From: Minisyncoccia bacterium | GTDB taxonomy: Bacteria > Patescibacteriota > Minisyncoccia > Phycocordibacterales > UBA9973 | DNA: 39,627 nucleotides | NCBI GenBank assembly: GCA_039809245.1 | Contig: JBDHUP010000005.1 | Coordinates: forward strand, 1 to 39,627 | Direction: 5' to 3' | The notes under the pieces: model-generated | Database searches by the model: none | What the model was told of the DNA's origin: nothing | The model's input: the letters and a program-made list of their open reading frames with translations, nothing else | Made by a program: the position numbers and the translations under genes | In this document: piece by piece, positions 1 through 23,706 of the stretch | How the letters are laid out: each line of letters begins with the position of its first letter | Numbering within the stretch: the stretch's first letter is position 1

Positions 1-3000
1 AGCTCTGGTGATGCTCTTGTTGTTTATTCTGCCAATGCAAGCGGTAGTGATGAGTTATTGTATCAAACTTGGGATGGAGTTACTTGGTCTGGAGCACAAA
101 CCCACAGCACATTAAGAACGAATGGAACAATATATGGAATTAAAGGAGCAGAAAGAAGTAGTTCAAATGAAATCGGAATTGTGTGGGTAGATACGAATTT
201 AAATATGTCGACAGATCTTTGGGATGGAAGTGCATGGTATGGAGAACCGAGTGCTAGTTTATGTTCAGGTGCACTCTGTACTATTGCGCGTACCGGGGGT
301 GCATCACCATCATCTGTTCCTACCCAAAGAGGTTATGACCTTGCTTTTGAATCACAGTCAGGTGACCTTATGGTGGTATGGGGAAATGATAGTTTAAGTA
401 CTACTCAAACTGATCCAAGATATATTATTAAAACAGCTGGTGGTTCATGGGGAGCTGCAGCTGGAACTGCTATTGCTAAATTAACAGAAGATGGAGAAAT
501 GCTCGATATATCTCCAAGTCCTGCTTCAGATAGAATTGCCCTAACAACTTGTGCTGTCGACTCTGGAGCAGATTGTAACTTCATTGTTTGGAGTGGAACT
601 GCATGGGGGACAGTTGCAAGTGATACAACATCAGGGACTATGATCGCCGGTGAAAGTAGTAACAATACCGAGTGGCTAGTCGATGGCGCAAATGAAGTTG
701 CGATCATGACTTATGGAGACGCTGCCGCTGCTGGTATCGACTGGTACACATCGACAAATGGAGGAACTCCTGTTGCTCAAACTGACAACAACGTCTCGCC
801 AATCATGGGAGCGGTTGCTGAACGTGCTGGGTTTTCGAAAGCATTTCCAAATGATCCATCCAAAGCCTTATTCATATTTGAAGACAACAACTCTGATGTT
901 TGGGTAAAGATTGCAAGATTACGCGGAACTCTGGTTTCTTGGTTAACTCCAGCTGGTGTTTCTGCTGCAATAGAAACAAACGCTTCAGTGATTGGTTTCA
1001 ATCCTGTTGGTTTTGGATTTAATAGATATGTATATGTGGCTCCTTCCATTTGTACATCTCAAGTGTCATCTGGAAACTGGAATACTGTTGGTACTTGGGA
1101 TTGTGGACACGTTCCTACATCTTCTGACGACGTAGTTATTGATGTCGGAGATTCTATAACAATGGATATAAATTCCGACTCTCTTCCATCTCTGACTGTA
1201 AATGGTACTCTAAATACTTCCGGTACAAACTATGATCTAACATCAGCTAGTATAAGTATAGGAAGTGCTGGATCTCTTATTGCCAATAATTCTGCAATTA
1301 ATATCACTGGAACTTCTGGAACACTTTTTACCAAGGATCCTAGTGGTACATTTACTGCGGGTGGCTCAACTTTGACTTTATCTGGGAACGGAACAGCTAC
1401 GGTAAACTCTGGAAATATTACTTTGAATAATTTAACTTTATCTGGTACAGGGACAAAGACACTAGGAGGTGATTTAACACTAGGAGGTGATTTAACTATT
1501 TCTGCAGGAACTTTCAATCCTTCTACATATGTACTAATAGTAACTGGAAATAGTTCTATTACTGGAACATTTAATGATAGTTCTGCAACTGGATCAAATA
1601 CTTTTATCGACACTGTTACTATTAATAATGGGGGAACATGGGGAACAAATACTGCAAACTCTGCTTATACATTTAGAGGAGGACTAACGGTTAATTCAAC
1701 ATCTACTTTTACATCTGGTAGTGGTACTTATACTTTTGATACTAATGCTCAAACAATTGGCGGAACACAATCTTTCACAATTACAAACTTAACTAATAGT
1801 ATTACAACAAGCACAGGTTTAACTTTCTCTTCAAACAATCCAACCGTTACTACTCTTACTCAAGGGACAAGTGCTGTTATAACATTCTCAGGAACTATTC
1901 CAACTATTACAACACTTACTGCAACCGCAAGTCCAAACACGGTTAATTACTCTGGTGCAAGTCAGACTGTTAAGGGTACAACTTACCATAACTTAACCTT
2001 ATCCGGTACAGGAGCAAAAACTACAACAGGTATAACTGTAAATGGAACATTTACAGTTGGAGGAGATGCTAGTGTAACAGTCTCCGACGTTCCAACCTAT
2101 GGATCTTCTGCAGCACTTAAATATGACAAGTCAGCTTCATTTACGACAGGAGTAGAATGGCCTTCGACTTTCTCTGCAAGTGGTGGAGTAAACATTAATT
2201 CAAATAGTGTCACTTTAGGTGGAGCTAAAATTCTTGATGATGGAGTACCGCTTCTGATTAGCTCAGGTGCTACACTCGACACTTCAGGATCAAACTATCA
2301 ATTAACTTTAGGTGGTAACTTTACTAAAACAGGGGCAACATTTACTGCGAATGCTTCACCAATAGTTATCTCCGGCACCTCCGCTCAATCCATCGCAGGA
2401 TTTACCACTACAGGTGCAGTTACATCAACAAAAACAGGAGGTACTGCAACACTTCAAGGAGCAGTTAGTGCAGGAACACTTACTGTAAATGGAGCAGGTG
2501 GAACATTAAATTTAGGATCAGGTCTCACCCACACAATTTCAGGAGCAATAACATTAACCGAAGGTACACTCGATGGTGGATCAAGTAATATCAATGCTGA
2601 TTCATTTTCTTCTTCAAACACAAACACTAGAACTCTTAATATGGGTAGTGGAACTTGGACGCTTAGTGGTACTGGAGGCTCAATTACTTACTCTGCATGG
2701 AACCCTTCAGACAAATCTGTAAATGTATCATTATCTAATAATGATTTAACTGCAAGTAGAGGGGGAGGTGTTGGTAATGTAAGAGCAACTCAAGGGGTAT
2801 CTAGCGGTAAATGGTATTGGGAAATAAAAAATATTTCCACAGGATTTAGTTATGACCAATGGATGGGTATTGCCAATTCTTCTGCTAGTTTATCTAATGC
2901 TCCAGGTCAAGGAGATGTAAATAGTTGGGCTATTGCAGTAGATGGTGGGGATTACTATCATAACGGATTTCTAGGACTTGCAAGTAATGGTACATGGCCT

Positions 3001-4005
3001 TCAGCAACTTCAGATACTTTTGGTTTTGCTCTAGATATGGATGCGGGTACATTAAAAGTTTATCAAAATAATAATATTATAATTCCACAGTCTGGAGTTT
3101 CTGGTGACCCATTATTTACTGGTATAAATGGTACTATTTATCCAATTATGTTTGTTAATGGTGAGAATACTGTTTCTACTGCTAATTTTGGTCAATCTCT
3201 AACTTATTCTCCACCAGCCGGATATAATCCTGGTCTCTATGCCGGGTCTAGTGGTCCTGTTTGGGACGCTTCAACCTCAACTGGCCTAACAGTAAATGGT
3301 GGTACCTCAACTATAAAATTAACAGATTCTTCTTCAGCAGATAAAACATTCTCTGGAGGAGGTAAGACATATAACAATTTTTGGTTTGCACCAGGATCAG
3401 GAACTGGAAGTCTAACTATAGTAGGAGATAACACTTTCAATGACTTCAAAGATGATGGATCAGTTGCTCATTCAATACTGTTTACTACTGGATCGACTCA
3501 GCATTTTGGGTCTTGGCATGTTTCAGGCCATTCTGGCCAACTTATATCAATAAATAGTACGACTACAGGTACTCACTCCCTATATATGGATGGATCAGGT
3601 GCTTCGAATGTAGATTATTTAAATATACAACACTCAGTTGCTAGTCCTTTTGGTAAATGGCTTGCTGGAGATAATAGTGTAGATAATAACTCTGTAGCAA
3701 CAGCGGGAAGTGGATGGTTGTTTAAGACACTGACTATTTATCGAGGTGGCGGAGGTAGTACTGAAACAGATAATGGTACTGGTTCTGGAAATTGTGCCGA
3801 TGGAATTCAGAATGGAAATGAAACAGGAGTAGATACCGGAGGAAGATGTTCTAATACTGGCGGCGGCGGCGGTGGTGGTACTGGCGGCGGCGGTGGTGGA
3901 GGTGGAGGTGATACTGGATTTTTGTATGGTAGAGGTAGAATGCTCGCTTCTGTTGGATACTTTAGTATTCCAGATATTTTAAGATATCTTTTTAAAATTT
4001 TTTAA
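1..4005 (+). CDS. Giant secreted/surface repeat protein with an embedded SPRY domain and a poly-Gly tail. It is 5'-partial: the frame is open from base 1, and the listed TTG at 58 is probably internal.
   Basis: Frame 1 has no stop from nt 1 to the TAA at 4003-4005. The N-terminal part repeats W-x-G-x-x-W-type motifs (YQTWDGVTWSG, LWDGSAWYG, FIVWSGTAWG). The middle ~500 aa are Thr/Gly/Ser/Asn-rich short repeats of the kind seen in beta-helix adhesins (TLSGNGTATV, LTLSGTGTKTLGGDLTLGGDLTISAGTF). The SPRY signature GKWYWEI is present, and the C-terminus carries GGGGGGGTGGGGGGGGG followed by a short hydrophobic/aromatic tail. Confidence 0.85.
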   Translation, partial: SSGDALVVYSANASGSDELLYQTWDGVTWSGAQTHSTLRTNGTIYGIKGAERSSSNEIGIVWVDTNLNMSTDLWDGSAWYGEPSASLCSGALCTIARTGGASPSSVPTQRGYDLAFESQSGDLMVVWGNDSLSTTQTDPRYIIKTAGGSWGAAAGTAIAKLTEDGEMLDISPSPASDRIALTTCAVDSGADCNFIVWSGTAWGTVASDTTSGTMIAGESSNNTEWLVDGANEVAIMTYGDAAAAGIDWYTSTNGGTPVAQTDNNVSPIMGAVAERAGFSKAFPNDPSKALFIFEDNNSDVWVKIARLRGTLVSWLTPAGVSAAIETNASVIGFNPVGFGFNRYVYVAPSICTSQVSSGNWNTVGTWDCGHVPTSSDDVVIDVGDSITMDINSDSLPSLTVNGTLNTSGTNYDLTSASISIGSAGSLIANNSAINITGTSGTLFTKDPSGTFTAGGSTLTLSGNGTATVNSGNITLNNLTLSGTGTKTLGGDLTLGGDLTISAGTFNPSTYVLIVTGNSSITGTFNDSSATGSNTFIDTVTINNGGTWGTNTANSAYTFRGGLTVNSTSTFTSGSGTYTFDTNAQTIGGTQSFTITNLTNSITTSTGLTFSSNNPTVTTLTQGTSAVITFSGTIPTITTLTATASPNTVNYSGASQTVKGTTYHNLTLSGTGAKTTTGITVNGTFTVGGDASVTVSDVPTYGSSAALKYDKSASFTTGVEWPSTFSASGGVNINSNSVTLGGAKILDDGVPLLISSGATLDTSGSNYQLTLGGNFTKTGATFTANASPIVISGTSAQSIAGFTTTGAVTSTKTGGTATLQGAVSAGTLTVNGAGGTLNLGSGLTHTISGAITLTEGTLDGGSSNINADSFSSSNTNTRTLNMGSGTWTLSGTGGSITYSAWNPSDKSVNVSLSNNDLTASRGGGVGNVRATQGVSSGKWYWEIKNISTGFSYDQWMGIANSSASLSNAPGQGDVNSWAIAVDGGDYYHNGFLGLASNGTWPSATSDTFGFALDMDAGTLKVYQNNNIIIPQSGVSGDPLFTGINGTIYPIMFVNGENTVSTANFGQSLTYSPPAGYNPGLYAGSSGPVWDASTSTGLTVNGGTSTIKLTDSSSADKTFSGGGKTYNNFWFAPGSGTGSLTIVGDNTFNDFKDDGSVAHSILFTTGSTQHFGSWHVSGHSGQLISINSTTTGTHSLYMDGSGASNVDYLNIQHSVASPFGKWLAGDNSVDNNSVATAGSGWLFKTLTIYRGGGGSTETDNGTGSGNCADGIQNGNETGVDTGGRCSNTGGGGGGGTGGGGGGGGGDTGFLYGRGRMLASVGYFSIPDILRYLFKIF
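1462..1497 (+). repeat. Tandem 2 x 18-nt duplication inside the giant gene (encodes LGGDLT LGGDLT)
   Basis: ctaggaggtgatttaaca is followed directly by ctaggaggtgatttaact, with 17 of 18 positions identical. Confidence 0.9.
2704..3235 (+). other. SPRY (B30.2-like) domain embedded in the giant surface protein
   Basis: The translated segment is NPSDKSVNVSLSNNDLTASRGGG..RATQGVSSGKWYWEIK...SWAIAVDGGDYYHNG...SDTFGFALDMDAGTLKVYQNN...IYPIMFV...STANFGQSLTYSPPAGY. It follows the classic SPRY pattern (GKWYWEV core, D-x-D-x-GTL strand, NFG..F.Y.PP.GY end). Confidence 0.75.
3859..3909 (+). repeat. GGC/GGT simple-sequence tract encoding poly-Gly
   Basis: ggcggcggcggcggtggtggtactggcggcggcggtggtggaggtggaggt, read in the frame of the giant ORF. 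Confidence 0.95.
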
Positions 4006-4023
4006 TTGAAAAATAAGATTTAA

Positions 4024-4052
4024 TTGCTGAAATCCCTTGTTTGACTTATAAT
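4024..4052 (+). promoter_or_regulatory. Candidate sigma70-type promoter (TTGCTG - 17 nt - TATAAT)
   Basis: ttgctg lies at 4024-4029, followed by a 17-nt spacer and tataat at 4047-4052. This is 15 nt upstream of the ATG at 4067. Confidence 0.45.
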
Positions 4053-4066
4053 ACATAGAGCACTAT

Positions 4067-4492
4067 ATGATCCCCATGACTAAGCGTAAATTTATAAATA
4101 TTGTTACGTCAGTGATAGTCATTACTTCACTCCTATTTGGCGGCTATTTTTATTACCAGTTTCATAAGCTTAAAAGTAGTCCTAATCTTCAAGTCCAGAA
4201 AGAAGCTCAAGATTTACTCTCAAAGGTTGCTCAAATATACCTTATTCCAACAGGTGAAGAGCCAACCATCGCAACAGTTTCTGATCCAAATGCTCTAAAG
4301 AATCAATCATTCTTTACACAATCTCAAAAAGGTGACAAAGTTCTAATATTCTCACAAGCTGGTAGAGCTGTTCTTTATCGTCCAAGTATAAATAAGATTA
4401 TAGAGACAACCCCAATTAACAATAATAAAAATGATCAAAATACCCAACCACCTGAAGAGACTTCAAGTCCACTCAAAGATAAGAGTTTCTAA
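4067..4492 (+). CDS. Small N-terminally membrane-anchored hypothetical protein
   Basis: The 141-aa ORF has a basic N-terminus followed by a TM segment (INIVTSVIVITSLLFGGYFYY), then a soluble domain and a low-complexity N/Q/P tail. I do not recognise a family. Confidence 0.6.
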   Translation: MIPMTKRKFINIVTSVIVITSLLFGGYFYYQFHKLKSSPNLQVQKEAQDLLSKVAQIYLIPTGEEPTIATVSDPNALKNQSFFTQSQKGDKVLIFSQAGRAVLYRPSINKIIETTPINNNKNDQNTQPPEETSSPLKDKSF

Positions 4493-5516
4493 ATATTTTT
4501 TACCGAGCTTAATCATAGTCTCTGTACTTTTGCCTGCTTCATATATATATGCAGCTCTTTCTTGTAGTGTTACTACTCAGACTTCTTGCAATACTAGTGG
4601 TTACACTACGCTCTTGCGCATGTCTGGTTCAACTAATGGTCACGCAGAACTCCCAAGTCAATCAAACAGTAATTACGACGCGAATGTAGTTTGTTGTTCG
4701 GGTATTTCCTCTCTCGGGAATTCATGTTCAGGTAATTATCAAATTTTTAATAAAATCTCAGCAGTAACAAATGCTCATGTTCAAGAAACAAGTGTAAATA
4801 CTTATGGTACAAATGCGTGTATATCTGATTCAATAGGGAATGATACGATAACTGTTGGTTATCAGAACACAAATTGTTCAGGTTACGATACGACACTTTT
4901 ATCAATGTCAGCATCTGATAATGCTTCTGTTGGCGATGGATCAGCTTACACAAGAAAAGTTTGCGCTACAGTGACTCAACCAACTCTAACTTTCGATTTA
5001 GATACTGCATCAGATTTTCATAACGGTGAATCAAGTGCTCCTTACTCAGTCGCTCTTGGGACTTTGACTACAGGGTCCGTAGCTGTTTCAGATGACTCAT
5101 CTATAAGAATGATAGTTGCGGAAGGTGATACAAATGCTGCTGGTGGAATGATTGTTACAGTTATGAATACAAATGGTGCAAGTGGACTAAAATCTGTGTC
5201 TGTTCCAGCCGACACAATCCCAAGTGCTACTGCACCAATGGCTGCTGGTACTGCAAACTATGGACTATGTGTAGCATCTTCAGGTCTAACTGGATTTTCA
5301 AGAGCCACAGCTTATAACACAACATGTGCTCTAGCTTCTGGTACGAATAATGTCGTAGGATTAACTTCAACTCCAGCAGATATTCTAAACTCAGCTGGCG
5401 CTCCGGTAACATCTGCTCATGCTGAAATAGTGGTAAATGCAGCTATAGATTCTGTAACACCAGCACATTCAGATTATGAAGATAAGTTGACATTTATTGC
5501 GACAGGTACGTTTTAA
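4431..5516 (+). CDS. Secreted surface protein, paralog A: Cys-rich variable N-domain plus conserved C-terminal module
   Basis: The signal-like N-terminus is YFLPSLIIVSVLLPASYIYA/AL. The N-domain has 11 Cys with repeated motifs (TLLRMSGSTNGHAE, KISAVTNAHVQE, TLLSMSASDNASVGD). The C-terminal ~176 aa are about 88% identical, by hand alignment, to the C-terminus of 5623..6789. The start overlaps the previous ORF by 62 nt, so the start is uncertain. Confidence 0.7.
   Translation: MIKIPNHLKRLQVHSKIRVSKYFLPSLIIVSVLLPASYIYAALSCSVTTQTSCNTSGYTTLLRMSGSTNGHAELPSQSNSNYDANVVCCSGISSLGNSCSGNYQIFNKISAVTNAHVQETSVNTYGTNACISDSIGNDTITVGYQNTNCSGYDTTLLSMSASDNASVGDGSAYTRKVCATVTQPTLTFDLDTASDFHNGESSAPYSVALGTLTTGSVAVSDDSSIRMIVAEGDTNAAGGMIVTVMNTNGASGLKSVSVPADTIPSATAPMAAGTANYGLCVASSGLTGFSRATAYNTTCALASGTNNVVGLTSTPADILNSAGAPVTSAHAEIVVNAAIDSVTPAHSDYEDKLTFIATGTF
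4987..5516 (+). repeat. Copy 1 of a ~530-nt direct repeat (3' module shared by the two paralogous genes)
   Basis: It aligns without gaps to 6260..6789. The alignment includes long identical runs, such as actttcgatttagatactgcatcagattttcataacggtgaatcaagtgctccttactcagtcgctcttgg and cttcaactccagcagatattctaaactcagctggcgctccggtaacatctgctcatgctgaaatagtggtaaatgcagctata. Confidence 0.9.
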
Positions 5517-5569
5517 TGTTATATAAGTTATCCCCAGCATTAATTTATATATCTTTTCCTTGTTTTTTA

Positions 5570-5578
5570 TGTTAAAAT
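5570..5578 (+). promoter_or_regulatory. Candidate extended -10 element (TGtTAAAAT) upstream of paralog B
   Basis: tgttaaaat sits at 5570-5578 in the 106-nt AT-rich spacer. I found no convincing -35. Confidence 0.3.
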
Positions 5579-5622
5579 ATAGGTACATTAGTTAAAAATT
5601 TATTATTAATTATTTATTTTTT

Positions 5623-6789
5623 ATGAGTATATATAAGTCAGAAAGGTCTGTTCTATCAAAGTTTATAAGTGCTATTACAATTCTCTCTCTTGTAGCTGTT
5701 TTAGTTGCTCCTGCTAAGATCGCAGTTGCTGCCTCTTTGACGACTTTATACGATGTTCAATCTAGAATGGAAGCAAGTACTGCAAGTGATCATACTATTT
5801 ACTTTAAAACTCCTTCAGGAGTGGCAAGTGGAGGTACAATCACTTATACATTCTCGGCTGGATTTACAGGTATAGGTTCAATGGTTGGTGCAGATTTTGA
5901 CCTCGCTGTTGCTACCACAAACGCTGCTTGTACATCTGCTTCATATACAGAACAAAGCGTAGTTACATCTTCTCCTTCTACATCACAATTCAGTATAGCT
6001 GGTTCAGGTCAAGTAGTTACAGTTACTTCAGGAGGCGCCAGTGCAACTATTGCCGCTGATCGCTGTGTTAGATTGAAAGCAGGTTTAAATGCTACTGATA
6101 CAACAGGTTCTGGTCCAGGTACTCATCAAATAACAAACGGTGCTATTGGTTCTACTGATACTATTACTATCGCAGGAAGTTTCGGTGATACAGGTTCAAT
6201 CACTGAAGATATAATAGATAGTGATCAGGTTAGTATTACTGCAGATGTTGGACAATCTTTGACTTTCGATTTAGATACTGCATCAGATTTTCATAACGGT
6301 GAATCAAGTGCTCCTTACTCAGTCGCTCTTGGAACTTTGACTACAGGATCAGTTACTCACTCTGATGATACAGCGATAAGAATGATAGTTGCGGAAGGTG
6401 ATACAAGTGCATCAGGTGGTATGGTTGTAACAGTTAGGAATACTAATGGCGCTAGTGGGCTAGTTTCAACTGGAACTCCAGCCGATACAATCCCAAGTGC
6501 TACAGCAACTATGGCTGCTGGAACTGCAAACTATGGACTATGCGTAGCATCTTCAGGTTTAACTGGATTTTCAAGAGCCACAGCTTATAATACATCATGC
6601 GCTCTAGCTTCTGGTACAAATGCTGTAGTAGGTCTAACTTCAACTCCAGCAGATATTCTAAACTCAGCTGGCGCTCCGGTAACATCTGCTCATGCTGAAA
6701 TAGTGGTAAATGCAGCTATAAGTACTGCGACTCCTGCTCATCCTGATTATACTGATCGTCTTACATTTATAGCGACAGGTACATTCTAA
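5623..6789 (+). CDS. Secreted surface protein, paralog B: different N-domain plus the same conserved C-terminal module
   Basis: The signal/anchor is FISAITILSLVAVLVAPAKIAVAAS. The N-domain (SLTTLYDVQSRMEASTASDHTIYFKTPSGVASGGTITYTFSAGF...) is unrelated to paralog A. The C-terminal module, from LTFDLDTASDFHNGESSAPYSVALGTLTTGSV to LTFIATGTF, is shared with 4431..5516. Confidence 0.8.
   Translation: MSIYKSERSVLSKFISAITILSLVAVLVAPAKIAVAASLTTLYDVQSRMEASTASDHTIYFKTPSGVASGGTITYTFSAGFTGIGSMVGADFDLAVATTNAACTSASYTEQSVVTSSPSTSQFSIAGSGQVVTVTSGGASATIAADRCVRLKAGLNATDTTGSGPGTHQITNGAIGSTDTITIAGSFGDTGSITEDIIDSDQVSITADVGQSLTFDLDTASDFHNGESSAPYSVALGTLTTGSVTHSDDTAIRMIVAEGDTSASGGMVVTVRNTNGASGLVSTGTPADTIPSATATMAAGTANYGLCVASSGLTGFSRATAYNTSCALASGTNAVVGLTSTPADILNSAGAPVTSAHAEIVVNAAISTATPAHPDYTDRLTFIATGTF
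6260..6789 (+). repeat. Copy 2 of the ~530-nt direct repeat
   Basis: See 4987..5516. Confidence 0.9.
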
Positions 6790-6814
6790 TTTTAACTAAG
6801 GTAACTTATTAGTA

Positions 6815-7843
6815 ATGAAATCTTACTTCCACAACAGGAATATTCTGATAATTTTCGTAATGATACTAATAGGTGTTTTCTATGGTTCAAATCATGTTTA
6901 CGCTCTAACTATAAGCCCTGTCAGAATTGAAGTTAGTGGTAATCCAGGGGAAACAATATCTGAAGATATTTTAATAAAGAATGAGAGTGAATCTACCATG
7001 ACTTACTATTCTTCGTTCTCAAACTTTCAATCACAAGGTGAATCAGGAACTCCTTCTTTTGTTGATGCAAAAGATGATTTAGGTACATGGATGGATACAG
7101 CTACATCCATTGTCTTGAAGGGAAGTGAGTCAAAGTATATAAAATTAAATATTACTATTCCAAATAATGCAGAACCAGGTGGACATTTCGCTGCTGTTTT
7201 TTGGGGTACTAATCCTAATGATACCAAAGGAGTTTCTATTGGTGCAAAAACAGGTACTCTGATTCTTTTGTCTGTTAATGGAGATGTGAAAGAAAGTGCA
7301 GGGTTAGTCGATTTCTCTACGAAGGATAACAAATTTTGGTACAATACATTACCGGTGTCATTTACTTATAGATTCAGGAACGATGGAGGTGATCGTATTA
7401 AACCAGTAGGTAAGATTACGATGCGAGATCTAGTCTATCTTCCAGCTGCTCGTATAGATGCAAATCCATCAAATGGTAACATTCTTCCAAACAGTACTAG
7501 GAGATTCGATGTAGATTGGGTAAAACATCCAAGACCTAAAGATTACATTTCACCAACAGGTACAATAAATAAATTCTTCGATCAAGCATTGTATCAATGG
7601 AGAAATTTTGCTATGGGACCATACTTTGTAAAAATGAGCTTACTCTATGGAACAGAAGCAAGTAGGATATCAAAAAATGTTTTCATTTTTGTATTTCCAT
7701 GGCAGTTAATTTTATGCCTTCTTATTATATTTATAATAGTATTCTGGGGTGGAAAGAAACTCATCAAACGCTACAATAGGCATATTATAAAGAAGGCACG
7801 CGCTGGTATGAACACACCAAACGATTTGCCTTCTCATGTATAA
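6815..7843 (+). CDS. Membrane-anchored surface protein with two Ig-like/PapD-like domains (architecture resembles DUF916/DUF3324 proteins of Firmicute WxL loci)
   Basis: It has a signal peptide (ILIIFVMILIGVFYGSNHVYA/LT) and a beta-rich ectodomain (ISPVRIEVSGNPGETISEDILIKNESESTMTY...NITIPNNAEPGGHFAAVFWGT). A C-terminal TM segment (WQLILCLLIIFIIVFWGG) is followed by a basic tail (KKLIKRYNRHIIKKAR). The family assignment rests on architecture only. Confidence 0.7.
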   Translation: MKSYFHNRNILIIFVMILIGVFYGSNHVYALTISPVRIEVSGNPGETISEDILIKNESESTMTYYSSFSNFQSQGESGTPSFVDAKDDLGTWMDTATSIVLKGSESKYIKLNITIPNNAEPGGHFAAVFWGTNPNDTKGVSIGAKTGTLILLSVNGDVKESAGLVDFSTKDNKFWYNTLPVSFTYRFRNDGGDRIKPVGKITMRDLVYLPAARIDANPSNGNILPNSTRRFDVDWVKHPRPKDYISPTGTINKFFDQALYQWRNFAMGPYFVKMSLLYGTEASRISKNVFIFVFPWQLILCLLIIFIIVFWGGKKLIKRYNRHIIKKARAGMNTPNDLPSHV

Positions 7844-8726
7844 AAAATATATAGTAAAAATTTTATATTCTTTCCTGTTTGCGACTCTACTTTTTTCGCA
7901 ATCTGTTTATGCTGGGACTATAGTTAGTTCACCTATAGATGTAAGTGTATCCGCAAAAGTTGGTATAGATATAATAGTTCCACCAGATGATGGAGGAGGT
8001 GGAGGTAGTGGTTTCCCTACGGGAGTTATATTTTCTGGTTGGGCTTATCCAGGAGCCAGTGTGCATGTTTGGAAAAATGGTGCCCCTAAAGATACCACAA
8101 TAGCAAGGCCGGATGGTTACTTTACAATAAGACTAAATGAAATATATAATCCGAATATATTCTACACTCTGTATGCTATAGATAAGGACAGTAGAAGATC
8201 ATTACTTTTGAATTATCCAATCGTTGTAAAAGCTGGATATTTAACGCAAATAAGTGGAATTAGATTTGCTCCTACAATAGAGACAGATAAGACTGAAGTA
8301 AAATTTGGAGATAGTATAACTGTCTTAGGCTATGCTTTACCTAGCACTCCTATTGTTCTAACTGTAGAAAAATTTCAAGATAGAGTATTTCACTTTATGA
8401 GTAATAGTGACGGTACTTATAGTATAAACCTACCGCTTGATGGTCTAAAAAAAGGCGATTATAAATTGTATGTTAATTATGAAAATGATAATAGAATAAG
8501 TAAGGTCATACAGTTTACGATAGGAGATGTGAATGTTCCAAGCGTTCTTCTTACTAATAATATTCCAGGGGACTGTAATGCTGATAGCATTATCAATATT
8601 ATAGATTTCTCTGTTGCGGCTTTTTGGTATGGAAAGAAGAATCCTCCACGATGTATAGATACAAATAATGATAATAAGATAGATTTGATAGACTTCTCTA
8701 TATTAGCGTTCTATTGGACTGGTTAA
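7836..8726 (+). CDS. Secreted protein with Ig-like (carboxypeptidase-regulatory-like) domains and a C-terminal type-I-like dockerin
   Basis: The signal peptide is ILYSFLFATLLFSQSVYA/GT. The last 52 aa contain two 12-residue F-hand loops, DCNADSIINIID (8571-8606) and DTNNDNKIDLID (8658-8693). Both have D/N at positions 1, 3, 5, 9 and 12, and each is followed by a DFS-helix (IIDFSVAAFWYG, LIDFSILAFYW). The ATG overlaps the stop of the upstream gene (ATGTATAA). Confidence 0.8.
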   Translation: MYKKYIVKILYSFLFATLLFSQSVYAGTIVSSPIDVSVSAKVGIDIIVPPDDGGGGGSGFPTGVIFSGWAYPGASVHVWKNGAPKDTTIARPDGYFTIRLNEIYNPNIFYTLYAIDKDSRRSLLLNYPIVVKAGYLTQISGIRFAPTIETDKTEVKFGDSITVLGYALPSTPIVLTVEKFQDRVFHFMSNSDGTYSINLPLDGLKKGDYKLYVNYENDNRISKVIQFTIGDVNVPSVLLTNNIPGDCNADSIINIIDFSVAAFWYGKKNPPRCIDTNNDNKIDLIDFSILAFYWTG

Positions 8727-8748
8727 TGGTATAATAATATATAAGATT

Positions 8749-9606
8749 ATGAAGAAATTCCTACTTATTATCGCTATATTTTTAACTAACATACTTATTG
8801 CAAATGCGGCAAGTATTTCTGTATCGGCGCCAAAATCTTCTGATATAAACCAGAATATAAGTGTCTTGGTAAATCTTGATACTGATAGTACTTCAATAAA
8901 TTCTTTCGATATAACACTTTCTTATCCTAACGATTTGGTTAGTTTTAAGGGTTACAAAGAGGAAGGTTCTATTAATAAGTTATGGATATCTCAACCAAAA
9001 GATATTGGTGGGGCTATTAACTTTAGTGGAGTTATTCCAGGAGGTGTGGATGGTGTTTATGATCCAGAAAAAGGAGGGATCCAACCTATTCCATTGATTA
9101 CTTTACTTTTTTCTACAACAAATGAAGGGAGTGGTGATTTTATTATTAAAAACTCAAATGTTCTAAAGAATGATGGGTTAGGGACAACTCTTTCTTATGA
9201 AGTAAATAATTCTTCTATCGTTATCTCTAAACTTGAAAGCAAAAATTCTGATGAGAGTAAAGTTGATATAAATCCACCAGAACCATTCGAAATTCAATAT
9301 ATACCAGCTGGTTTGTTTTAAAAAACCCCGCCAATAATTATTTTCTCTGCAACAGATAAAGAGTCTGGTATAGAAAAATATCAAATGAAAACTCTTGGTC
9401 ATTGGAAAGAGGTTACAAGTCCTAAAGCCGTCTCTAGAAACTTATTAAAGAAAGATATTCGAATTAGAGCGATAGATTTTAGTGGAAATATTCGTGAATC
9501 TAGCATCGATATACCAGGATTTATATCAAATACACAGTTATTACTTATAGTTTTAGGTATATTAATTTGTTACTATATTTATATTACAGTAAAAAGAAAA
9601 AGATGA
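8749..9606 (+). pseudogene. Cohesin-like, C-terminally membrane-anchored surface protein interrupted by a single in-frame TAA at 9319-9321
   Basis: ORFs 8749..9321 and 9385..9606 are in the same frame, and the only stop between them is the TAA at 9319. Read through, the protein is ...PPEPFEIQYIPAGLF*KTPPIIIFSATDKESGIEKYQMKTLGHWKEVTSP...IRAIDFSGNIRES, followed by a TM anchor (LLLIVLGILICYYIYI) and KRKR. The N-terminal part (ISVSAPKSSDINQNISVLVNLDTDSTSINSFDITLSYPNDLVSFKGY...) is cohesin-like. The terminal TGA overlaps the next ATG (ATGA at 9603-9606), which is typical of a genuine upstream gene end. Confidence 0.7.
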
Positions 9607-10742
9607 AATTATCGATAAAAGTCATATTATTTAATAGTATTTTGGTTTATATGTTGTGTGCTAGCACCGCAGATGCTTCTTCTTCTCTTTTCATGACCAA
9701 ATCAGCATCCAATATATCAGAAGGAGATCAAATTACACTAAACGTAAAAGTGAAATCTACCGATCAAGCTATTAATGCAGTCACAGGCTCAATTAATTTC
9801 CCTGGTGATATGTTAAAAACCGTTTCAATATCTAGGGATAGTAGTATTTTAAATATTTGGACACATGACCCTAATATACAGAGGAATAAGATAAATTTTG
9901 AGGGAGTTATACTCAATCCTGGTTATCAGGGTAGTGATGGTGAAATATTACATGTAACTTTTGAAGCGATAAAAAGGGGTACAGCTACTGTAACTTTTGG
10001 AGAAGGAGCTCTTCTTGCAAATGATGGATTAGGTACAAATATAATCACACAGCTTTCCCCGATAAGTTTTAATATAACATCTCCTGGATCTCTTGATTTA
10101 ATTGATAATAGTAGAAATGTTGCTACTTCAAGAATCCCATCTAATAAGCTTGCCTTACCTGTTATTACTGACTACTCACAATCTATATTTTCTAAAGATG
10201 TTGCATACCTGAAGGGAAAAGGTGAACCGAGAGCTTTAACGAAGATAGTTTTTGAAGATGTTTCTCATAAGTCATTTGGGGAACAGTTCATGGATTTCAT
10301 CCAATCAAAGAAAAAAAGATTAACAGATGTTCTTGTTAAGAATAAAGAAGATGGCTCATTTGAGTATACAACATCTAATAATCTCGTTGCTGGAGTCTAT
10401 AATGCTACACCATTTTTGGTAGATGACAATACAAATACCGACAAGCCAGGCTTAGGGGTACAACTATTTATTAAAGATAGTAAGGTTATAAAGTGGCTGA
10501 TAGTATTCATTAATATCCTCATACTATTAATACCTATAGCTGGGCTTATAATGATTGTCTATTTCATACCTTGGTATTCTTCTCGTAAAATGCGTATTTT
10601 AAAGAGAAAGATGGGTCTTGAGGAAGAGAAAATTGAGATTACTCAGCATCAATTAGAAAGGCAAGACCAGATGATGGGTAGAGTAAATGAGGTTAGTCAA
10701 GCTAATAAATATACACAGGATTCTATAGGTAATAATAGCTAA
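9603..10742 (+). CDS. Cohesin-like, C-terminally membrane-anchored surface protein with a cytoplasmic coiled-coil tail
   Basis: The likely start is the ATG at 9603 (MKLSIKVILFNSILVYMLCASTADA signal), not the listed 9567. The cohesin-like module is SEGDQITLNVKVKSTDQAINAVTGSINFPGDMLKTVSISRD...GEILHVTFEAIKRGTATVTFGEGALLANDGLGTNI. The TM segment is WLIVFINILILLIPIAGLIMIVYFIPWY, followed by a charged tail. Confidence 0.75.
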   Translation: MKLSIKVILFNSILVYMLCASTADASSSLFMTKSASNISEGDQITLNVKVKSTDQAINAVTGSINFPGDMLKTVSISRDSSILNIWTHDPNIQRNKINFEGVILNPGYQGSDGEILHVTFEAIKRGTATVTFGEGALLANDGLGTNIITQLSPISFNITSPGSLDLIDNSRNVATSRIPSNKLALPVITDYSQSIFSKDVAYLKGKGEPRALTKIVFEDVSHKSFGEQFMDFIQSKKKRLTDVLVKNKEDGSFEYTTSNNLVAGVYNATPFLVDDNTNTDKPGLGVQLFIKDSKVIKWLIVFINILILLIPIAGLIMIVYFIPWYSSRKMRILKRKMGLEEEKIEITQHQLERQDQMMGRVNEVSQANKYTQDSIGNNS

Positions 10743-10760
10743 TGTTATATAATTATATCA

Positions 10761-11861
10761 ATGAAACGTATATACCACGGTCTGGTTTCCCCTATACTGA
10801 TTCTTATAATAGCGACCATTCCGTTCTCAGGAATGGCTGATAGTAGTATATTGAGCCCTCAAGAGAATTTGTGGCTGAAGTCTCGTAATAATACTATTAT
10901 CGTTTATCCTGAAAAGAACCACCCACCATATTCTTACCAAAATTCTTCAGGAATACCACAAGGACTATCAATAGATTATATAGAATTAATTGGTCAAAAA
11001 ATTGGAGCAAAAATTGAATACCTACCGGCTAGACCTCTTTCACAGATACTCGATGATGTAAAACAGGGTGACAAAGGGGATGTTATAACTTCACTGGCTG
11101 ATACAAAAGAGAGAGAAGAACTTTTATATTTTTCTGATACATATGTAAACGTACCAGCTGTCATTGTTGTACGTAAAGATTCTGATATCGGTAATGCTCT
11201 GACACTCAGTAGTCTATCTGGTAAAAGAGTAGCAATAGGAAGTAAATATGCAGTTGAGGAATTCGTAAGAGTTACAAATCCAAGAGTTATTATTGAATCA
11301 GTCATAGACGATGAATCAGGTTTGCAACAGGTAGTACTAGGTGAAGTTGATGCAGCTATAATGGATGTAGCTTCTTTGTCCTACTATCTATCGAAGCAAG
11401 TTTTAAATAGTGTAAAAATTGTAGGAAGTACAGGCTTTGAGTACAAGCTTGCTTTTGCTGTCCCAAAGAGTAAGGAAATATTACAATCAATCTTAGATAA
11501 AGGGTTACAGCAAGTAAGCGAATCTGACCGTAATGCTTTAAATGATAAATGGATTAATATATCAAATTACGATGGTGGTACAGCTCAATCAATATTCTCA
11601 GATATAAGTAAAAATACAAGTACAATAGTTATGTATATATTATTATTATTATTTATTGTAGTAATAATTTTGTTTTTAAAACGAAACCATTATTCAGGAT
11701 ATATACCTATGAGATATACAAGGAAGGTCTCAGATATAGATGATCTAAAAGAAGAAATTGCAGAGCTCGAACATACAAGTGAGAGTTTGATTGAAGAGTT
11801 GAAAGACGTAAAGAATTTAGAGCAAGACATCAAAGAGAAAATACATAATATAGAGAAGTAA
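10761..11861 (+). CDS. Membrane protein with an extracytoplasmic family-3 solute-binding (SBP_bac_3) domain, one TM segment and a short coiled-coil tail; no output domain
   Basis: It has a signal/anchor, then PPYSYQNSSGIPQGLSIDYIELIGQKIGAKIEYLP...LYFSDTYVNVPAVIVVRKD...LSGKRVAIGSKYAVEEF...VDAAIMDVASLSYYL. This is the typical periplasmic amino-acid-binding/sensor fold pattern. The TM segment is IVMYILLLLFIVVIILFL, followed by a ~60-aa charged heptad-like tail. Confidence 0.7.
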   Translation: MKRIYHGLVSPILILIIATIPFSGMADSSILSPQENLWLKSRNNTIIVYPEKNHPPYSYQNSSGIPQGLSIDYIELIGQKIGAKIEYLPARPLSQILDDVKQGDKGDVITSLADTKEREELLYFSDTYVNVPAVIVVRKDSDIGNALTLSSLSGKRVAIGSKYAVEEFVRVTNPRVIIESVIDDESGLQQVVLGEVDAAIMDVASLSYYLSKQVLNSVKIVGSTGFEYKLAFAVPKSKEILQSILDKGLQQVSESDRNALNDKWINISNYDGGTAQSIFSDISKNTSTIVMYILLLLFIVVIILFLKRNHYSGYIPMRYTRKVSDIDDLKEEIAELEHTSESLIEELKDVKNLEQDIKEKIHNIEK

Positions 11862-11930
11862 TTGCTCCTAATTTAGCTAAAATAACCTTAATATATATAG
11901 CTCTAAGGGCTTTCTTTTGGTCTTAAATTT

Positions 11931-11939
11931 TGCTATAAT
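11931..11939 (+). promoter_or_regulatory. Candidate extended -10 promoter element (TGcTATAAT) upstream of gyrB
   Basis: tgctataat sits at 11931-11939, 24 nt upstream of the gyrB ATG. The -35 region is weak. Confidence 0.4.
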
Positions 11940-11962
11940 AATAGGGTAATTAAAATTATTTC

Positions 11963-14068
11963 ATGGCCCAAAAAGAAGAAAAAAAGACAAAAAAAGAGGG
12001 TAAATACGGTGCAGATGAAATATCAGTTCTAGAAGGTCTTGAACCGGTACGACGTAGGCCTGGAATGTATATTGGATCTACTGGTATAGATGGACTACAT
12101 CACTTGGTCTGGGAGATTTTTGATAACTCACGTGATGAAGCCATGGGTGGTTTCTGTGATCATATTGAAGTCGTTTTACTGCCAGGTAATTCTGTTCGCG
12201 TCTCAGATAACGGAAGAGGTATACCAGTAGACACACATTCAAAAACAAAAGTCTCTGCTCTAGAAACTGTCATGACCACACTCCATGCTGGAGGTAAGTT
12301 CGGAGGTGATGATAGTGGTTATAAAGTCTCAGGTGGTCTTCATGGAGTGGGAGCTTCTGTAGTTAACGCTCTTTCTATATATACTAAAGCTGAAGTCCAT
12401 CGTGATGGTGGCAAATATGTCCAAGAATACTCTCAAGGTAAAAGAAAAGCAGCTGTAAAGAAAGTAAGTTCATCAAAAGAGCATGGAACTATAATTTCAT
12501 TTGAGCCAGATGAAGAAATATTTAAGCAAGTTAAATTTGACTTGAACACTATTGTGAACCATTTACGTCAGCAAGCATATCTTGTAAAAGGTCTACGTAT
12601 CGATATTATTGATGCCCGAGAATGGGACCCACTGACTGGAAGTAAAGAGAAGAAAAATTTCGAAGATATCTTCTGGTTTAGGGAACTTGGTTTAGAAGTT
12701 CCTTCAACTACATTTTATTTCGAAGGGGGTCTTGTATCATTGGTAAAATTCTACAATAAACTTATTAAGCCAATACACCCAACTGTATTTTACGTAGAAC
12801 GTGAACAAGATAAGGTCGGTGTAGAGATAGCACTACAATATGTAGATGATATAAATCCTCATATTGTTCCATTCGCAAACAATATTTATAACCCAGAAGG
12901 AGGTACTCATGTTACCGGTTTTAAAACTGCACTCACCCGTGTATTAAATACATACAGCAAAAAGAACAACTTAGTCAAAGAAGCCGATGGAGCTTTCACT
13001 GGAGATGATGTTCTGGAAGGACTCATGGTTGTTATTTCAGTAAAACTTCGAGAGATTCAATTTGAAGGTCAAACTAAAGCAAAATTGGGTTCAACTGAAG
13101 CTCAAGGAGCAGTGGCTTCTGTCTTCGGAGACGCTTTCAACGCTTTCCTTGAAGAGAACCCAGATGAGGCTAAATCTATTATAGGTAAATCACTTCTTGC
13201 GCTTCGTGCTCGTAAAGCTGCCAAAGCTGCTAAGGATTCAGTGTTAAGAAAAGGTGCTCTTGAGGGTATGACTCTTCCTGGTAAGCTTGCTGACTGCCAA
13301 ACTAAAAGTGCAGATGAAGCAGAGCTCTTCATTGTGGAGGGAGATTCTGCGGGAGGTACAGCTAAGATGGGCCGTGATAGAAAGACCCAGGCAATTCTTC
13401 CACTTCGAGGTAAAATTCTAAATGTTGAACGCGCTCGTCTTGATAGAATGCTCGGTTCAGAACAAATAAAAAATCTAGTTATCGCTATGGGGACATCTAT
13501 TGGAGATACGTTTGATATTGAAAAAATGCGATACCATAAGATAATTATTGCGACTGATGCCGATGTGGACGGAGCTCACATTCGTACCCTGATACTTACA
13601 CTTATGTATAGGTATTTCAGAGCAGTACTTGATATTGGTTATGTATATATTGCTCAACCACCACTTTTTAAGATTAAGAAGGGTAAAGAAATACTATACG
13701 CATACTCAGATGAAGAGAGAGACAAGATACTTGGTAAAGACGCTCCATCATTAGAGGAACTTCTATCTGAATCTGCGCAAGAAGACGGAGCTCAAGAAGT
13801 AGAGCTTGAAGTTGAAGAAGAGGATGAAAAAACAAAGTCAAAAAAGACAACAAAGATTCACATCCAGCGTTATAAAGGTCTTGGAGAAATGAATGCCGAA
13901 GAACTTTGGGAAACCACAATGGATCCAGAGAAACGCATACTAAAACAAGTAGCAGTTAACGACGCTGAGGAGGCAAATAAAGTATTTGATATGCTTATGG
14001 GATCAGAGGTTCCACCACGTAAAGCTTTCATTCAATCTCATGCTAAGATGGCAAGACTAGATATCTAA
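11963..14068 (+). CDS. gyrB: DNA gyrase subunit B
   Basis: GHKL ATPase motifs are present (LHHLVWEIFDNSRDEA, DNGRGIP, GGLHGVGASVVNA), as are the TOPRIM motifs (ELFIVEGDSAGG, ATDADVDGAHI) and the C-terminal QRYKGLGEMN. An acidic insertion (EELLSESAQEDGAQEVELEVEEEDEK) lies near the C-terminus. Confidence 0.97.
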   Translation: MAQKEEKKTKKEGKYGADEISVLEGLEPVRRRPGMYIGSTGIDGLHHLVWEIFDNSRDEAMGGFCDHIEVVLLPGNSVRVSDNGRGIPVDTHSKTKVSALETVMTTLHAGGKFGGDDSGYKVSGGLHGVGASVVNALSIYTKAEVHRDGGKYVQEYSQGKRKAAVKKVSSSKEHGTIISFEPDEEIFKQVKFDLNTIVNHLRQQAYLVKGLRIDIIDAREWDPLTGSKEKKNFEDIFWFRELGLEVPSTTFYFEGGLVSLVKFYNKLIKPIHPTVFYVEREQDKVGVEIALQYVDDINPHIVPFANNIYNPEGGTHVTGFKTALTRVLNTYSKKNNLVKEADGAFTGDDVLEGLMVVISVKLREIQFEGQTKAKLGSTEAQGAVASVFGDAFNAFLEENPDEAKSIIGKSLLALRARKAAKAAKDSVLRKGALEGMTLPGKLADCQTKSADEAELFIVEGDSAGGTAKMGRDRKTQAILPLRGKILNVERARLDRMLGSEQIKNLVIAMGTSIGDTFDIEKMRYHKIIIATDADVDGAHIRTLILTLMYRYFRAVLDIGYVYIAQPPLFKIKKGKEILYAYSDEERDKILGKDAPSLEELLSESAQEDGAQEVELEVEEEDEKTKSKKTTKIHIQRYKGLGEMNAEELWETTMDPEKRILKQVAVNDAEEANKVFDMLMGSEVPPRKAFIQSHAKMARLDI

Positions 14069-14071
14069 ATT

Positions 14072-14096
14072 AAAAACCGCACTATGTGCGGTTTTT
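14072..14096. terminator. Bidirectional rho-independent terminator between convergent gyrB and thrS
   Basis: aaaaaccgcac (14072-14082) pairs perfectly with gtgcggttttt (14086-14096) around a tat loop, with A/T runs on both sides. The hairpin overlaps the thrS stop codon. Confidence 0.8.
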
Positions 14097-15833
14097 AATT
14101 TCTTGTTTAATATGAGCGATGAAATCTTCTTGAGACATTTGGACTTTTTCTCCACCTCTTTTCTCTACTGTTAGTAGACCTGATTCTTTTTCTTTATCAC
14201 CGAGGATTATTACATAAGGAGTGTTCATTTTCTTAGCTTGGTGAATTCTCTTACCAAGAGAGTCGTTACCAGAAATCTTTTCAACTCGTATGAATTCACT
14301 ATGCAGTGCATTGAAAACTTTCTCTGCTTCACCCTCATGATCTTCTTTAACTGGAATGATAGATACTTGAACAGGTGATAGCCAAGTAGGGAATACGCCA
14401 GCATAGTGTTCGATAAGGAATCCAGTAAATCTCTCATGTGTTCCAAGGGGCGCACGGTGGATACAAAGTGGTGTTTCTTCTTTTCCTTCTTTTGAAGTAT
14501 AGACAAGATCAAATCGTTTTGGAACCGCAAAATCTACTTGGTTGGTTGCAAGAGTAAATTCTCGGCCGATAGCACTCCAAACCTGGACGTCTATTTTAGG
14601 ACCATAGAATGCTGCTTCATCTGGGATTTCTACATAAGGTATCTTTGATTCAATAAGAACATTACGAACCATATCTTCAGTTTTTTTCCAGAGTTCTGGC
14701 TGGTCTACATATTTCTGACCAAGTTTTTCAGGGGCATGGGTAGAGAAGCGCATTACGTATTTATCTATGCCGAAAATTTTAAAGTATTTCAGATACATGT
14801 CATTTACAGCTCGGAATTCATCACCGAATTGTTCTTCTGTGCAGTATATGTGCGCATCATTCATCGAAAGTGATCTTACTCTCATAAGTCCGAATAATTC
14901 TCCAGATTTTTCGTGGCGATAAACTGTACCGTACTCAGCAAGGCGAAGTGGTAGGTCTCTATAACTCTTTCCTCCAGCAGCAAAGACCTGATGATGGTGA
15001 GGGCAGTTCATAGCTTTAAGGTAATATTTACCACCTTCATATTCCATAGGAGGGTACATTGATTCTTCATAGTACGGTAAATGACCAGAAGTTAGATACA
15101 TGGATTCTTTAGCAATATGTGGAGTACGTACTTGTTTATAACCAGCCAAGAATTCTGTTTCTTTAGCAAGTTTCTCAAGCTCTTCAGTTATAACAGTTCC
15201 ATTTGGAAGCCATAATGGAAGGCCAGGACCTACATAATCAGAGAATGAGAATAAGTCCATTTCTGCCCCTAGTTTTCTATGATCTCTCTTTTTAGCTTCT
15301 TCTTGTTGTGTTCCATATTCTTCTAAATCTTTTTTATTTAAAAATGCTAGTCCATATATACGTGTGAGCATTTTGTTTTTTTCATCACCACGCCAGTATG
15401 CTCCAGCAATACGCTCAAGCTTGAATGAATCAGGTTTAATGTCTTTACTTGGGTGTTCTGAATGTCCACCACGACATAGATCAGTAAACCCACCGCAGGT
15501 ATAGAGGGTGATCTTCTCTCCTCGTTCACTTATTTCTTCTATTAATTCTTTTTTATAAGTATTACCTTTGAATATTTCTAGTGCTTCATCTTTAGATACT
15601 TCTTTGTGTGAAAATTCTGTCCATTTAGGAAGATTTTCTATCATAGTTTTCTCAATCTTATTTAAATCTTCATCTGTTACTTTTTCTGTCCCAAAGTCGA
15701 AATCATAGTAAAATCCGTTATCAATTGCTGGCCCTAATGTAGGTAATGTTTTAGGATAATGTGCCATCACAGCTTGGGCAAGCAGGTGGGCTAGCGTGTG
15801 CCTGATATGTGTTAGTTTGTCGGTGTTTTCCAT
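14082..15833 (-). CDS. thrS: Threonyl-tRNA synthetase lacking the N-terminal TGS domain (editing, catalytic and anticodon-binding domains retained)
   Basis: Editing-site motifs are HIRHTLAHLL and TDLCRGGH. The class II core shows CPHHHQVF and YRHEKSGELFGLMRVRSLSMNDAHIY. The protein begins directly at the editing domain. I prefer the ATG at 15833 (MENTDKL...) over the listed 15848. Confidence 0.93.
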   Translation of the reverse strand: MENTDKLTHIRHTLAHLLAQAVMAHYPKTLPTLGPAIDNGFYYDFDFGTEKVTDEDLNKIEKTMIENLPKWTEFSHKEVSKDEALEIFKGNTYKKELIEEISERGEKITLYTCGGFTDLCRGGHSEHPSKDIKPDSFKLERIAGAYWRGDEKNKMLTRIYGLAFLNKKDLEEYGTQQEEAKKRDHRKLGAEMDLFSFSDYVGPGLPLWLPNGTVITEELEKLAKETEFLAGYKQVRTPHIAKESMYLTSGHLPYYEESMYPPMEYEGGKYYLKAMNCPHHHQVFAAGGKSYRDLPLRLAEYGTVYRHEKSGELFGLMRVRSLSMNDAHIYCTEEQFGDEFRAVNDMYLKYFKIFGIDKYVMRFSTHAPEKLGQKYVDQPELWKKTEDMVRNVLIESKIPYVEIPDEAAFYGPKIDVQVWSAIGREFTLATNQVDFAVPKRFDLVYTSKEGKEETPLCIHRAPLGTHERFTGFLIEHYAGVFPTWLSPVQVSIIPVKEDHEGEAEKVFNALHSEFIRVEKISGNDSLGKRIHQAKKMNTPYVIILGDKEKESGLLTVEKRGGEKVQMSQEDFIAHIKQEIKNRT

Positions 15834-15855
15834 ATGTAGACATATCATATCATAT

Positions 15856-15883
15856 TTGCATTTTAGGTGAAAATCGGTATACT
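15856..15883 (+). promoter_or_regulatory. Candidate promoter for rpmF (TTGCAT - 16 nt - TATACT); the -10 ends 6 nt before the ATG
   Basis: ttgcat lies at 15856-15861 and tatact at 15878-15883. The ATG is at 15890, where a transcription start would be expected. Confidence 0.4.
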
Positions 15884-15889
15884 AGCTAT

Positions 15890-16114: not shown

Positions 16115-16115
16115 T

Positions 16116-16158
16116 TTTTAGCGCCTCTTTGTAATATGATTACAGTGAGACGCTAAAA
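16116..16158 (+). terminator. Long imperfect hairpin after rpmF (possible terminator or processing site)
   Basis: The arm ttttagcgcctctttgtaat faces attacagtgagacgctaaaa across an atg loop, with 17 of 20 positions pairing. There is no clean U-tract afterwards. Confidence 0.4.
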
Positions 16159-16177
16159 TCTATCTACCTATATTTTT

Positions 16178-17080: not shown

Positions 17081-17090
17081 TTTAAATAAT

Positions 17091-17786: not shown

Positions 17787-17787
17787 T

Positions 17788-23700: not shown

Positions 23701-23706
23701 AGCCCT

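Follow-up and report, generated by a model that had tools for sequence, protein, structure and literature searches.

What do a dockerin gene and two adjoining genes for cohesin-like membrane proteins build on the surface of a reduced-genome bacterium? This question is raised by a 39,627-nucleotide contig of a Minisyncoccia bacterium (JBDHUP010000005.1, assembly GCA_039809245.1; the whole contig is called the window below), in which the genes for a secreted dockerin protein (296 residues, 7836..8726), cohesin protein 1 (frame 8749..9606, interrupted by a stop codon) and cohesin protein 2 (379 residues, 9603..10742) lie side by side on the forward strand. The genome is that of a tiny, probably symbiotic member of the Patescibacteria (candidate phyla radiation, CPR), in line with the reduced-genome host assumed in an initial annotation of this DNA. 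That annotation regarded the trio as a minimal docking system, but it is not self-contained: the trio is the invariant core of a surface-protein operon of seven to eight genes. Our analysis suggested that this core probably encodes a cohesin-dockerin complex of the Patescibacteria cell surface that is dedicated, anchored in the membrane and non-cellulosomal.

The open reading frame (ORF) of the dockerin protein was confirmed, and its product comprises a signal peptide, a Gly-rich linker, two immunoglobulin (Ig)-like domains and a C-terminal dockerin module (residues 244-296, 8565..8723) composed of two calcium-loop and helix repeats. Both 12-residue calcium loops described in the initial annotation, DCNADSIINIID (8571..8606) and DTNNDNKIDLID (8658..8693), were read at the expected places with D/N at positions 1, 3, 5, 9 and 12, and a DFS..AF[WY][YW] helix directly follows each of them; this loop-helix pattern is kept in about 75 orthologues. 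Against Pfam Dockerin_1 (PF00404), the window protein scored 16.3 bits (E = 0.012; cut-off 22.9), and phmmer with this protein alone reached the solved dockerin 2y3n_B at E = 0.016. The scan was then extended to the family, for which 264 homologues were found and 46 aligned. Dockerin_1 matched 38 of the 46 aligned members (E <= 0.01) and the Ig domain Big_6 matched 45, indicating that the proposed Dockerin_1 assignment falls short for the window protein and stands for its family. Moreover, three of four distant orthologues tested scored 25.8-35.6 bits on Dockerin_1, above the cut-off, and the family profile matched the solved dockerins 2y3n_B (E = 7e-5), 5nrm_B and 5nrk_B. Distant lineages show a textbook dockerin sequence in this module, GDLNxDGxVNLVDFSI.AYWYKR...VDLNGDGKVDLVDFSIMAYYWTG. 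Judged by these profile matches, the dockerin identity clearly holds at the level of the family.

The dockerin module is also the most conserved portion of the protein, and its internal symmetry (..[LI][IV]DFS[IV]xAFWY.. / ..L[IV]DFSILAFYW..) is invariant throughout the phylum. Cys247 and Cys273 of the window module are invariant, and this pair (DCN...C.D) occurs specifically in the Paceibacteria subgroup. In the AlphaFold2 model of the protein (mean predicted local distance difference test score, pLDDT, 82.5), the signal peptide and a disordered Gly-rich linker precede the two Ig-like domains (approximately residues 61-128 and 136-230), and the C-terminus forms two helices (residues 255-263 and 284-295). 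In a Foldseek search with the whole protein, the Ig part matched adhesin Ig domains of Bap, SiiE and intimin; these Ig domains dominated the matches and no dockerins were listed, and support for the dockerin therefore comes from the hidden Markov models together with the helix layout of the model.

The distribution of the module was further assessed by searching its 56 residues against 1.84 billion representative sequences, which returned 1482 proteins at E <= 1e-3. Among the best 150 of the 1482, nearly all carry the module at the extreme C-terminus of a protein of approximately 280-510 residues, and the few long multi-repeat proteins among the matches are only 29-39% identical. In addition, a dockerin-only profile revealed no second dockerin ORF, neither elsewhere in the window nor up to 8 kb from the core in the 80 loci. 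The single C-terminal type of dockerin and the lack of a second one nearby argue for a dedicated rather than a multi-cargo system.

Cohesin protein 2 has 286 homologues, all from Patescibacteria where a name is given, and some of them are called 'cohesin domain-containing protein' by NCBI. Neither window cohesin protein matched Pfam Cohesin (PF00963) at E <= 1; the profile matched 7 of 48 cohesin protein 2 relatives (E <= 0.01, best E = 5e-7), and a distant relative scored 18.4 bits against a cut-off of 24.1. Searches of the PDB by sequence, whether with the single sequence or with a profile of cohesin protein 2, gave marginal cohesin matches only (E = 0.45). As the window proteins taken alone remain below threshold in Pfam and NCBIfam, family-level scans and structure prediction were needed.

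The AlphaFold2 model of cohesin protein 2 (overall pLDDT 83.8) displays, after the signal peptide, a beta-sandwich cohesin module (residues 27-159, 9681..10079), most of which is modelled at pLDDT >90. A second beta domain follows at residues 187-273, then a transmembrane helix at residues 292-326 (10476..10580) and a long conserved cytoplasmic helix that extends to about residue 374. In a Foldseek search of this model against the PDB, approximately 45 of the top 50 matches were cohesins of types I, II and III, with E values down to 8e-10, template modelling scores (TM-scores) of 0.72-0.77 and a root-mean-square deviation of about 3 Å, and the non-cellulosomal cohesins of Clostridium perfringens and Archaeoglobus fulgidus were among them. 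According to this model, the nine-stranded jelly-roll cohesin fold is present in cohesin protein 2. The two cohesin-like proteins of the initial annotation were thus recovered by fold comparison for the third gene of the trio and by homology for the second, and not by Pfam Cohesin.

An Asn, a Trp, glycines and an NDG.G motif are invariant in both cohesin paralogues. On the model, these residues would map to the 8-3-6-5 sheet, with the Asn on strand 3, the Trp on strand 5, the Gly on strand 6 and NDGxG after strand 8. The 8-3-6-5 sheet is the canonical dockerin-binding face in solved complexes. The most conserved region of cohesin protein 2, above the extracellular domains, is its membrane-proximal and cytoplasmic part. 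The stronger conservation of its transmembrane and juxtamembrane cytoplasmic segment, residues ~292-345 (..YFIPWYS.RRMR.LKKK.GLEEEK..), hints at an intracellular or intramembrane partner.

The relation of cohesin protein 1 to cohesin protein 2 was detected both by BLASTP with its N-terminal domain (E = 6e-10) and by hhalign of the two modules (probability 99.7%, E = 5e-26). Pfam Cohesin matched 4 of 48 members of the cohesin protein 1 family (E <= 0.01). Through this homology, cohesin protein 1 may be assigned the same fold as cohesin protein 2. The frame that opens at 8749 reaches 9606 and holds an in-frame TAA at 9319..9321. As assembled, the part before this codon (8749..9321) encodes 190 residues, namely a signal peptide and a cohesin-like module (approximately 8809..9228), and the remainder in the same frame (9322..9606) encodes a small Ig-like domain of the OmpL47 type (NCBIfam NF047446 at E = 6e-6, short of the cut-off of that model), followed by a transmembrane helix (9511..9597) and a tail with the sequence KRKR. 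The nonsense codon consequently parts the 190-residue cohesin product from its transmembrane helix. The C-terminal membrane anchors predicted earlier for both cohesin proteins were accordingly intact in cohesin protein 2 and cut off by the TAA in cohesin protein 1, so that only cohesin protein 2 can be the anchored receptor here, unless the codon is a sequencing error.

Is the system then decaying in this genome, with a real stop and a partly pseudogenised operon in place of a working trio? Homologues of cohesin protein 1 are contiguous over 285-300 residues and span both halves of the interrupted gene, with Ser at the position of the window's TAA (consensus F-S-x-T-P), and three relatives carry TCA where the window has TAA. 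The contiguity of all these homologues, the replacement of TCA and the use of TAA as a normal stop by neighbouring genes favour decay. Set against this, TAA differs from TCA by a single C-to-A change in a T4-A6-C4 homopolymer context of a metagenome assembly, where a minority variant or an error is no less possible; the 94 codons past the stop have stayed open and are conserved, and the coupling of cohesin gene 1 to cohesin gene 2, through the overlap of the TGA of the former with the ATG of the latter (ATGA, 9603..9606), is intact. The TAA is either a real nonsense allele or a base-call or assembly error, and decay of the operon in this genome is a serious possibility that we put at somewhat below even.

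To place the window among its relatives, cohesin protein 2 was traced by a pattern scan of one genome per species, and gene order was counted by profile searches on the ORFs of 80 fetched loci, of which 66 were informative, that is, had enough upstream DNA. Relatives of cohesin protein 2 occurred in at least 565 genomes, distributed over Paceibacteria (Minisyncoccia), Nomura-, Magasanik-, Wolfe-, Colwell-, Jorgensen-, Taylor-, Brenner-, Lipton- and Harrisonbacteria. In 63 of the 66 informative loci, which represent very divergent Patescibacteria, the dockerin gene is followed on its own strand by cohesin 1 and then cohesin 2; the recurrence of the arrangement foreseen in the initial annotation was thereby confirmed, and this constancy points to a functional linkage of the three genes. 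Two of the three exceptions to the pattern retain the same order. In loci L038 (7056..9092) and L052 (6835..9468), cohesin 1 and cohesin 2 lie in a single uninterrupted ORF, and a third exception has one extra cohesin gene. The single ORFs of L038 and L052 could be natural fusions or the outcome of a lost stop codon.

The neighbours of the trio are conserved to different degrees. In 49 of 62 loci, the gene immediately upstream of the dockerin gene is the WxLIP-like one, and in 34 of 68 loci cohesin 2 is directly followed by a solute-binding protein gene, which takes this place only in the Paceibacteria subgroup and is sometimes duplicated. The commonest full order starts with the small anchored protein and the two secreted paralogues, continues with the WxLIP-like protein, the dockerin and cohesins 1 and 2, and ends with the solute-binding protein; the flanks beyond this operon vary among genomes. 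Translational coupling of the trio, as claimed at first, was found in part: the ATGA overlap is real, and ATGTATAA (7836..7843) joins the stop of the WxLIP-like gene to the start of the dockerin gene, whereas 22 nucleotides separate the dockerin gene from cohesin gene 1. The start of cohesin gene 2 is ATG 9603 and not the listed TTG 9567, as homologues begin at the ATG.

How would these proteins work together? In the model that we favour, the secreted Ig-dockerin protein would be kept at the membrane by a dockerin that plugs into one or both cohesin modules. In their full-length orthologues, both cohesin proteins are bitopic and combine a signal peptide with a cohesin module, a spacer of Ig-like type and a transmembrane helix; the WxLIP-like anchor, translationally coupled to the dockerin gene, belongs to the same operon. 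Most likely, the whole operon would build one cell-surface assembly for envelope architecture and/or contact with a partner cell.

Several points weigh against this model. While the domain identities, the secretion and anchoring topology, the paralogy of the cohesins and the phylum-wide gene linkage were established, we infer both the binding of dockerin to cohesin, with its stoichiometry, and the biological role, be it adhesion or envelope structure, including host attachment. Most cohesin relatives lie below the Pfam Cohesin cut-off and neither window protein matches it, as far as sequence profiles can tell; the conserved Gly and Trp of the cohesins could be structural rather than part of an interface; locus L048, the sole locus of this kind, contains a gene resembling that of cohesin protein 2 but no dockerin gene beside it; and cohesin gene 1 is broken in this very window.

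Some of these points also speak for a different explanation, in which the products are surface proteins of one operon that make no cohesin-dockerin contact with one another. The cohesin-like sandwiches would then have other ligands, for example a glycan, peptidoglycan, the surface of a host or the secreted paralogues encoded upstream, and the dockerin would be a calcium-stabilised module only, or have its partner encoded elsewhere. The weak cohesin sequence signals are consistent with this explanation, as are the other candidate partners in the operon, namely the WxLIP-like protein and the two secreted paralogues. Moreover, many orphan non-cellulosomal cohesins and dockerins with no proven partners are reported in the literature. 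However, the lack of mutual binding sits poorly with one dockerin gene beside two cohesin genes in nearly all informative loci of the phylum, with a dockerin that is the most conserved segment of its protein, and with Foldseek matches that are specifically cohesins and not generic Ig or carbohydrate-binding module (CBM) folds. We therefore consider this explanation unlikely.

A more elaborate form of the complex was also considered, in which the two near-identical faces of the dockerin bind both cohesins at once, giving a 1:1:1 transmembrane complex whose cytoplasmic helix couples inward by signalling or mechanical linkage. The symmetric dockerin, the constant pairing with two cohesins and the conserved cytoplasmic segment allow such a bridging or signalling model. 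In its favour, the internal symmetry of the dockerin does not vary across the phylum, two different cohesin proteins always accompany each dockerin, cohesin 1 and cohesin 2 are naturally fused in the single ORFs of L038 and L052, and the juxtamembrane and cytoplasmic segment YFIPWYS..RRMR..LEEEK is the most conserved in cohesin protein 2. It is countered by the truncation of cohesin gene 1 in this window, and symmetric dockerins in known systems usually reflect alternative (dual-mode) binding of one cohesin rather than the binding of two at a time. Simultaneous bridging of this kind appears doubtful. Similarly speculative is the broader proposal that the trio is an ancient phylum-wide envelope organiser, in which the dockerin would bridge two membrane cohesins and the cytoplasmic helix would link surface contact, with a host or with the cell's own surface layer, to the interior; if this were true, the cohesin-dockerin pair would be a core structural or signalling device of episymbionts and not an enzyme-scaffolding accessory.

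Finally, a miniature cellulosome that scaffolds carbohydrate-active enzymes shares the use of cohesin and dockerin modules, and a GT2 glycosyltransferase gene lies elsewhere in the window, but this reading was rejected as highly improbable, because neither a glycoside hydrolase nor a CBM was detected among the window ORFs scanned, the sole dockerin protein carries Ig-like domains only, no other dockerin lies near the operon in the 80 loci, and each cohesin protein has one cohesin module, with no multi-cohesin scaffoldin. The statement of the initial annotation that no glycoside hydrolase is nearby and that this is not a cellulosome agrees with these results: none was present among the window ORFs scanned, which covered all but a few small ORFs, and the one dockerin protein is Ig-only.

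The dedicated membrane-anchored complex that we favour was further compared with known systems. The C. perfringens glycoside-hydrolase and toxin complexes (cohesins 2vo8, 2jh2 and 2w1n) and the A. fulgidus cohesin 2xdh have the same fold as single modules and rank among the best Foldseek matches (TM-score ~0.77), and the pairs of these organisms likewise involve two calcium-loop dockerin repeats and serve outside cellulose degradation. In contrast to them, the operon described here places its cohesins on two small bitopic membrane proteins and its dockerin on a small Ig-only protein; the three genes stand side by side throughout the phylum with no enzyme, and similarity to Pfam Cohesin stays below threshold. 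The C. thermocellum proteins OlpA and OlpC (3ul4 and 4dh2), both among the Foldseek matches, resemble the present system in that a surface-anchored single cohesin receives a dockerin protein. Unlike cellulosome anchoring scaffoldins of this kind, which carry type I/II cohesins, the cohesins here are anchored by C-terminal transmembrane helices and not by S-layer homology (SLH) domains or sortase, and they would serve one dedicated cargo with no scaffoldin and no CBM.

A dockerin-annotated protein of Patescibacteria has been reported before. SEML1_0315 of the cultivated saccharibacterium Southlakia epibionticum is an essential, Ig-rich envelope protein required for growth on the host; its 2784-bp gene (~927 residues) lies between a hydrolase gene and a tRNA gene, and glycan targeting was proposed by the authors (Wang et al., 2023, PMC10633639). 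SEML1_0315 was ruled out as an orthologue of the operon dockerin, given its different size and the absence of cohesin neighbours. No description of the present operon in Patescibacteria was found in the literature; the operon itself is new to our literature search, and non-cellulosomal cohesins and dockerins as such are already known.

The means by which the ultra-small and mostly uncultivated Patescibacteria build their envelope and hold partner cells are largely unknown, and most of their surface proteins have no annotation. The operon offers a concrete candidate set of interacting proteins in at least several hundred species, and would extend the cohesin-dockerin pair to a dedicated, enzyme-free, membrane-anchored role. 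In addition, the small and apparently invariant pair may serve as an orthogonal tag for protein display.

Among the other operon proteins, the WxLIP-like protein (342 residues, 6815..7843, + strand) has a signal peptide, beta-sandwich domains and a C-terminal transmembrane helix (residues 287-318). Pfam WxLIP_PGBD scored it at 13.6 bits (E = 0.069; cut-off 27.3), and the same profile matched 7 of 20 relatives (best E = 4e-4), fn3_5 matching 6 of 20. The best PDB match of the family, a weak one, was EfmWxLIP1 (9i1y). DUF3324 gave no match to the 342-residue protein, and no WxL domain was found in its neighbours, the upstream paralogues. WxLIP proteins of Firmicutes consist of a signal peptide, PGBD (DUF916), HBD (DUF3324) and a C-terminal transmembrane helix, comprise ~337-365 residues and are encoded beside WxL-domain proteins (PMC10599100). 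The protein agrees with this layout in its size, its signal peptide and its C-terminal transmembrane helix, although the sequence signal is weak and below the Pfam cut-off. On these profile scores, the 342-residue protein is possibly, on a weak signal, distantly related to the WxL-interacting proteins (DUF916/WxLIP). It would represent a WxLIP-like form outside Firmicutes, and no WxL partner for it was detected. The Firmicutes WxL/Csc clusters are comparable operons of secreted and anchored proteins thought to form one complex (PMC10599100, PMC1534035), but unlike the operon described here they contain no cohesin or dockerin genes.

Upstream of this gene on the + strand, the operon usually begins with a small protein (141 residues, 4067..4492), which has an N-terminal membrane anchor (hydrophobic segment at residues 9-28). 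Many loci contain a homologue of the small protein in their upstream part; in five distant ones it is the last gene before the dockerin gene. The two secreted paralogues that follow on the + strand (361 residues, 4431..5516; 388 residues, 5623..6789) share a C-terminal domain of ~185 residues ending in ...LTFIATGTF, and one or two copies of the family are kept upstream of the core in many Patescibacteria. A WxL-like identity, suggested by eye from the C-terminal Y..LTFIATGTF, was not supported by Pfam or PDB sequence searches. As neither database gave a match, the paralogues were left as a family with no assignment.

Downstream of the core, the solute-binding protein (SBP_bac_3, Pfam E = 5e-23; 10761..11861, + strand) carries a C-terminal transmembrane segment (residues 282-311) and a cytoplasmic coiled-coil tail; no permease or ATPase gene adjoins its gene. 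A terminator-like site (11899..11911) lies 3' of this gene, and gyrB comes next. The promoter and terminator scan of the window was uninformative, since counts did not exceed the shuffled expectation.

The rest of the window consists of housekeeping genes (rpoB, rpoC, dnaG, rpoD, trmD and RNase R) besides the GT2 glycosyltransferase gene. Despite this dense housekeeping content, no tRNA genes and no Rfam matches were detected in 1..39627. At 58..4005, running off the 5' end, a very large surface protein is represented by its C-terminal 1315 residues; it has a G8 domain, long Thr/Gly/Ser-rich repeats, a poly-Gly tract before a short hydrophobic end and a SPRY-like motif, GKWYWEIK, seen by eye only. 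The genes of close relatives at this position encode approximately 3000 residues and match the PATR repeat. On the opposite strand, 20046..21686 encodes a 546-residue protein that joins a PGA_cap domain (capsule synthesis, metallophosphatase-like) to a VanY D-Ala-D-Ala carboxypeptidase domain.

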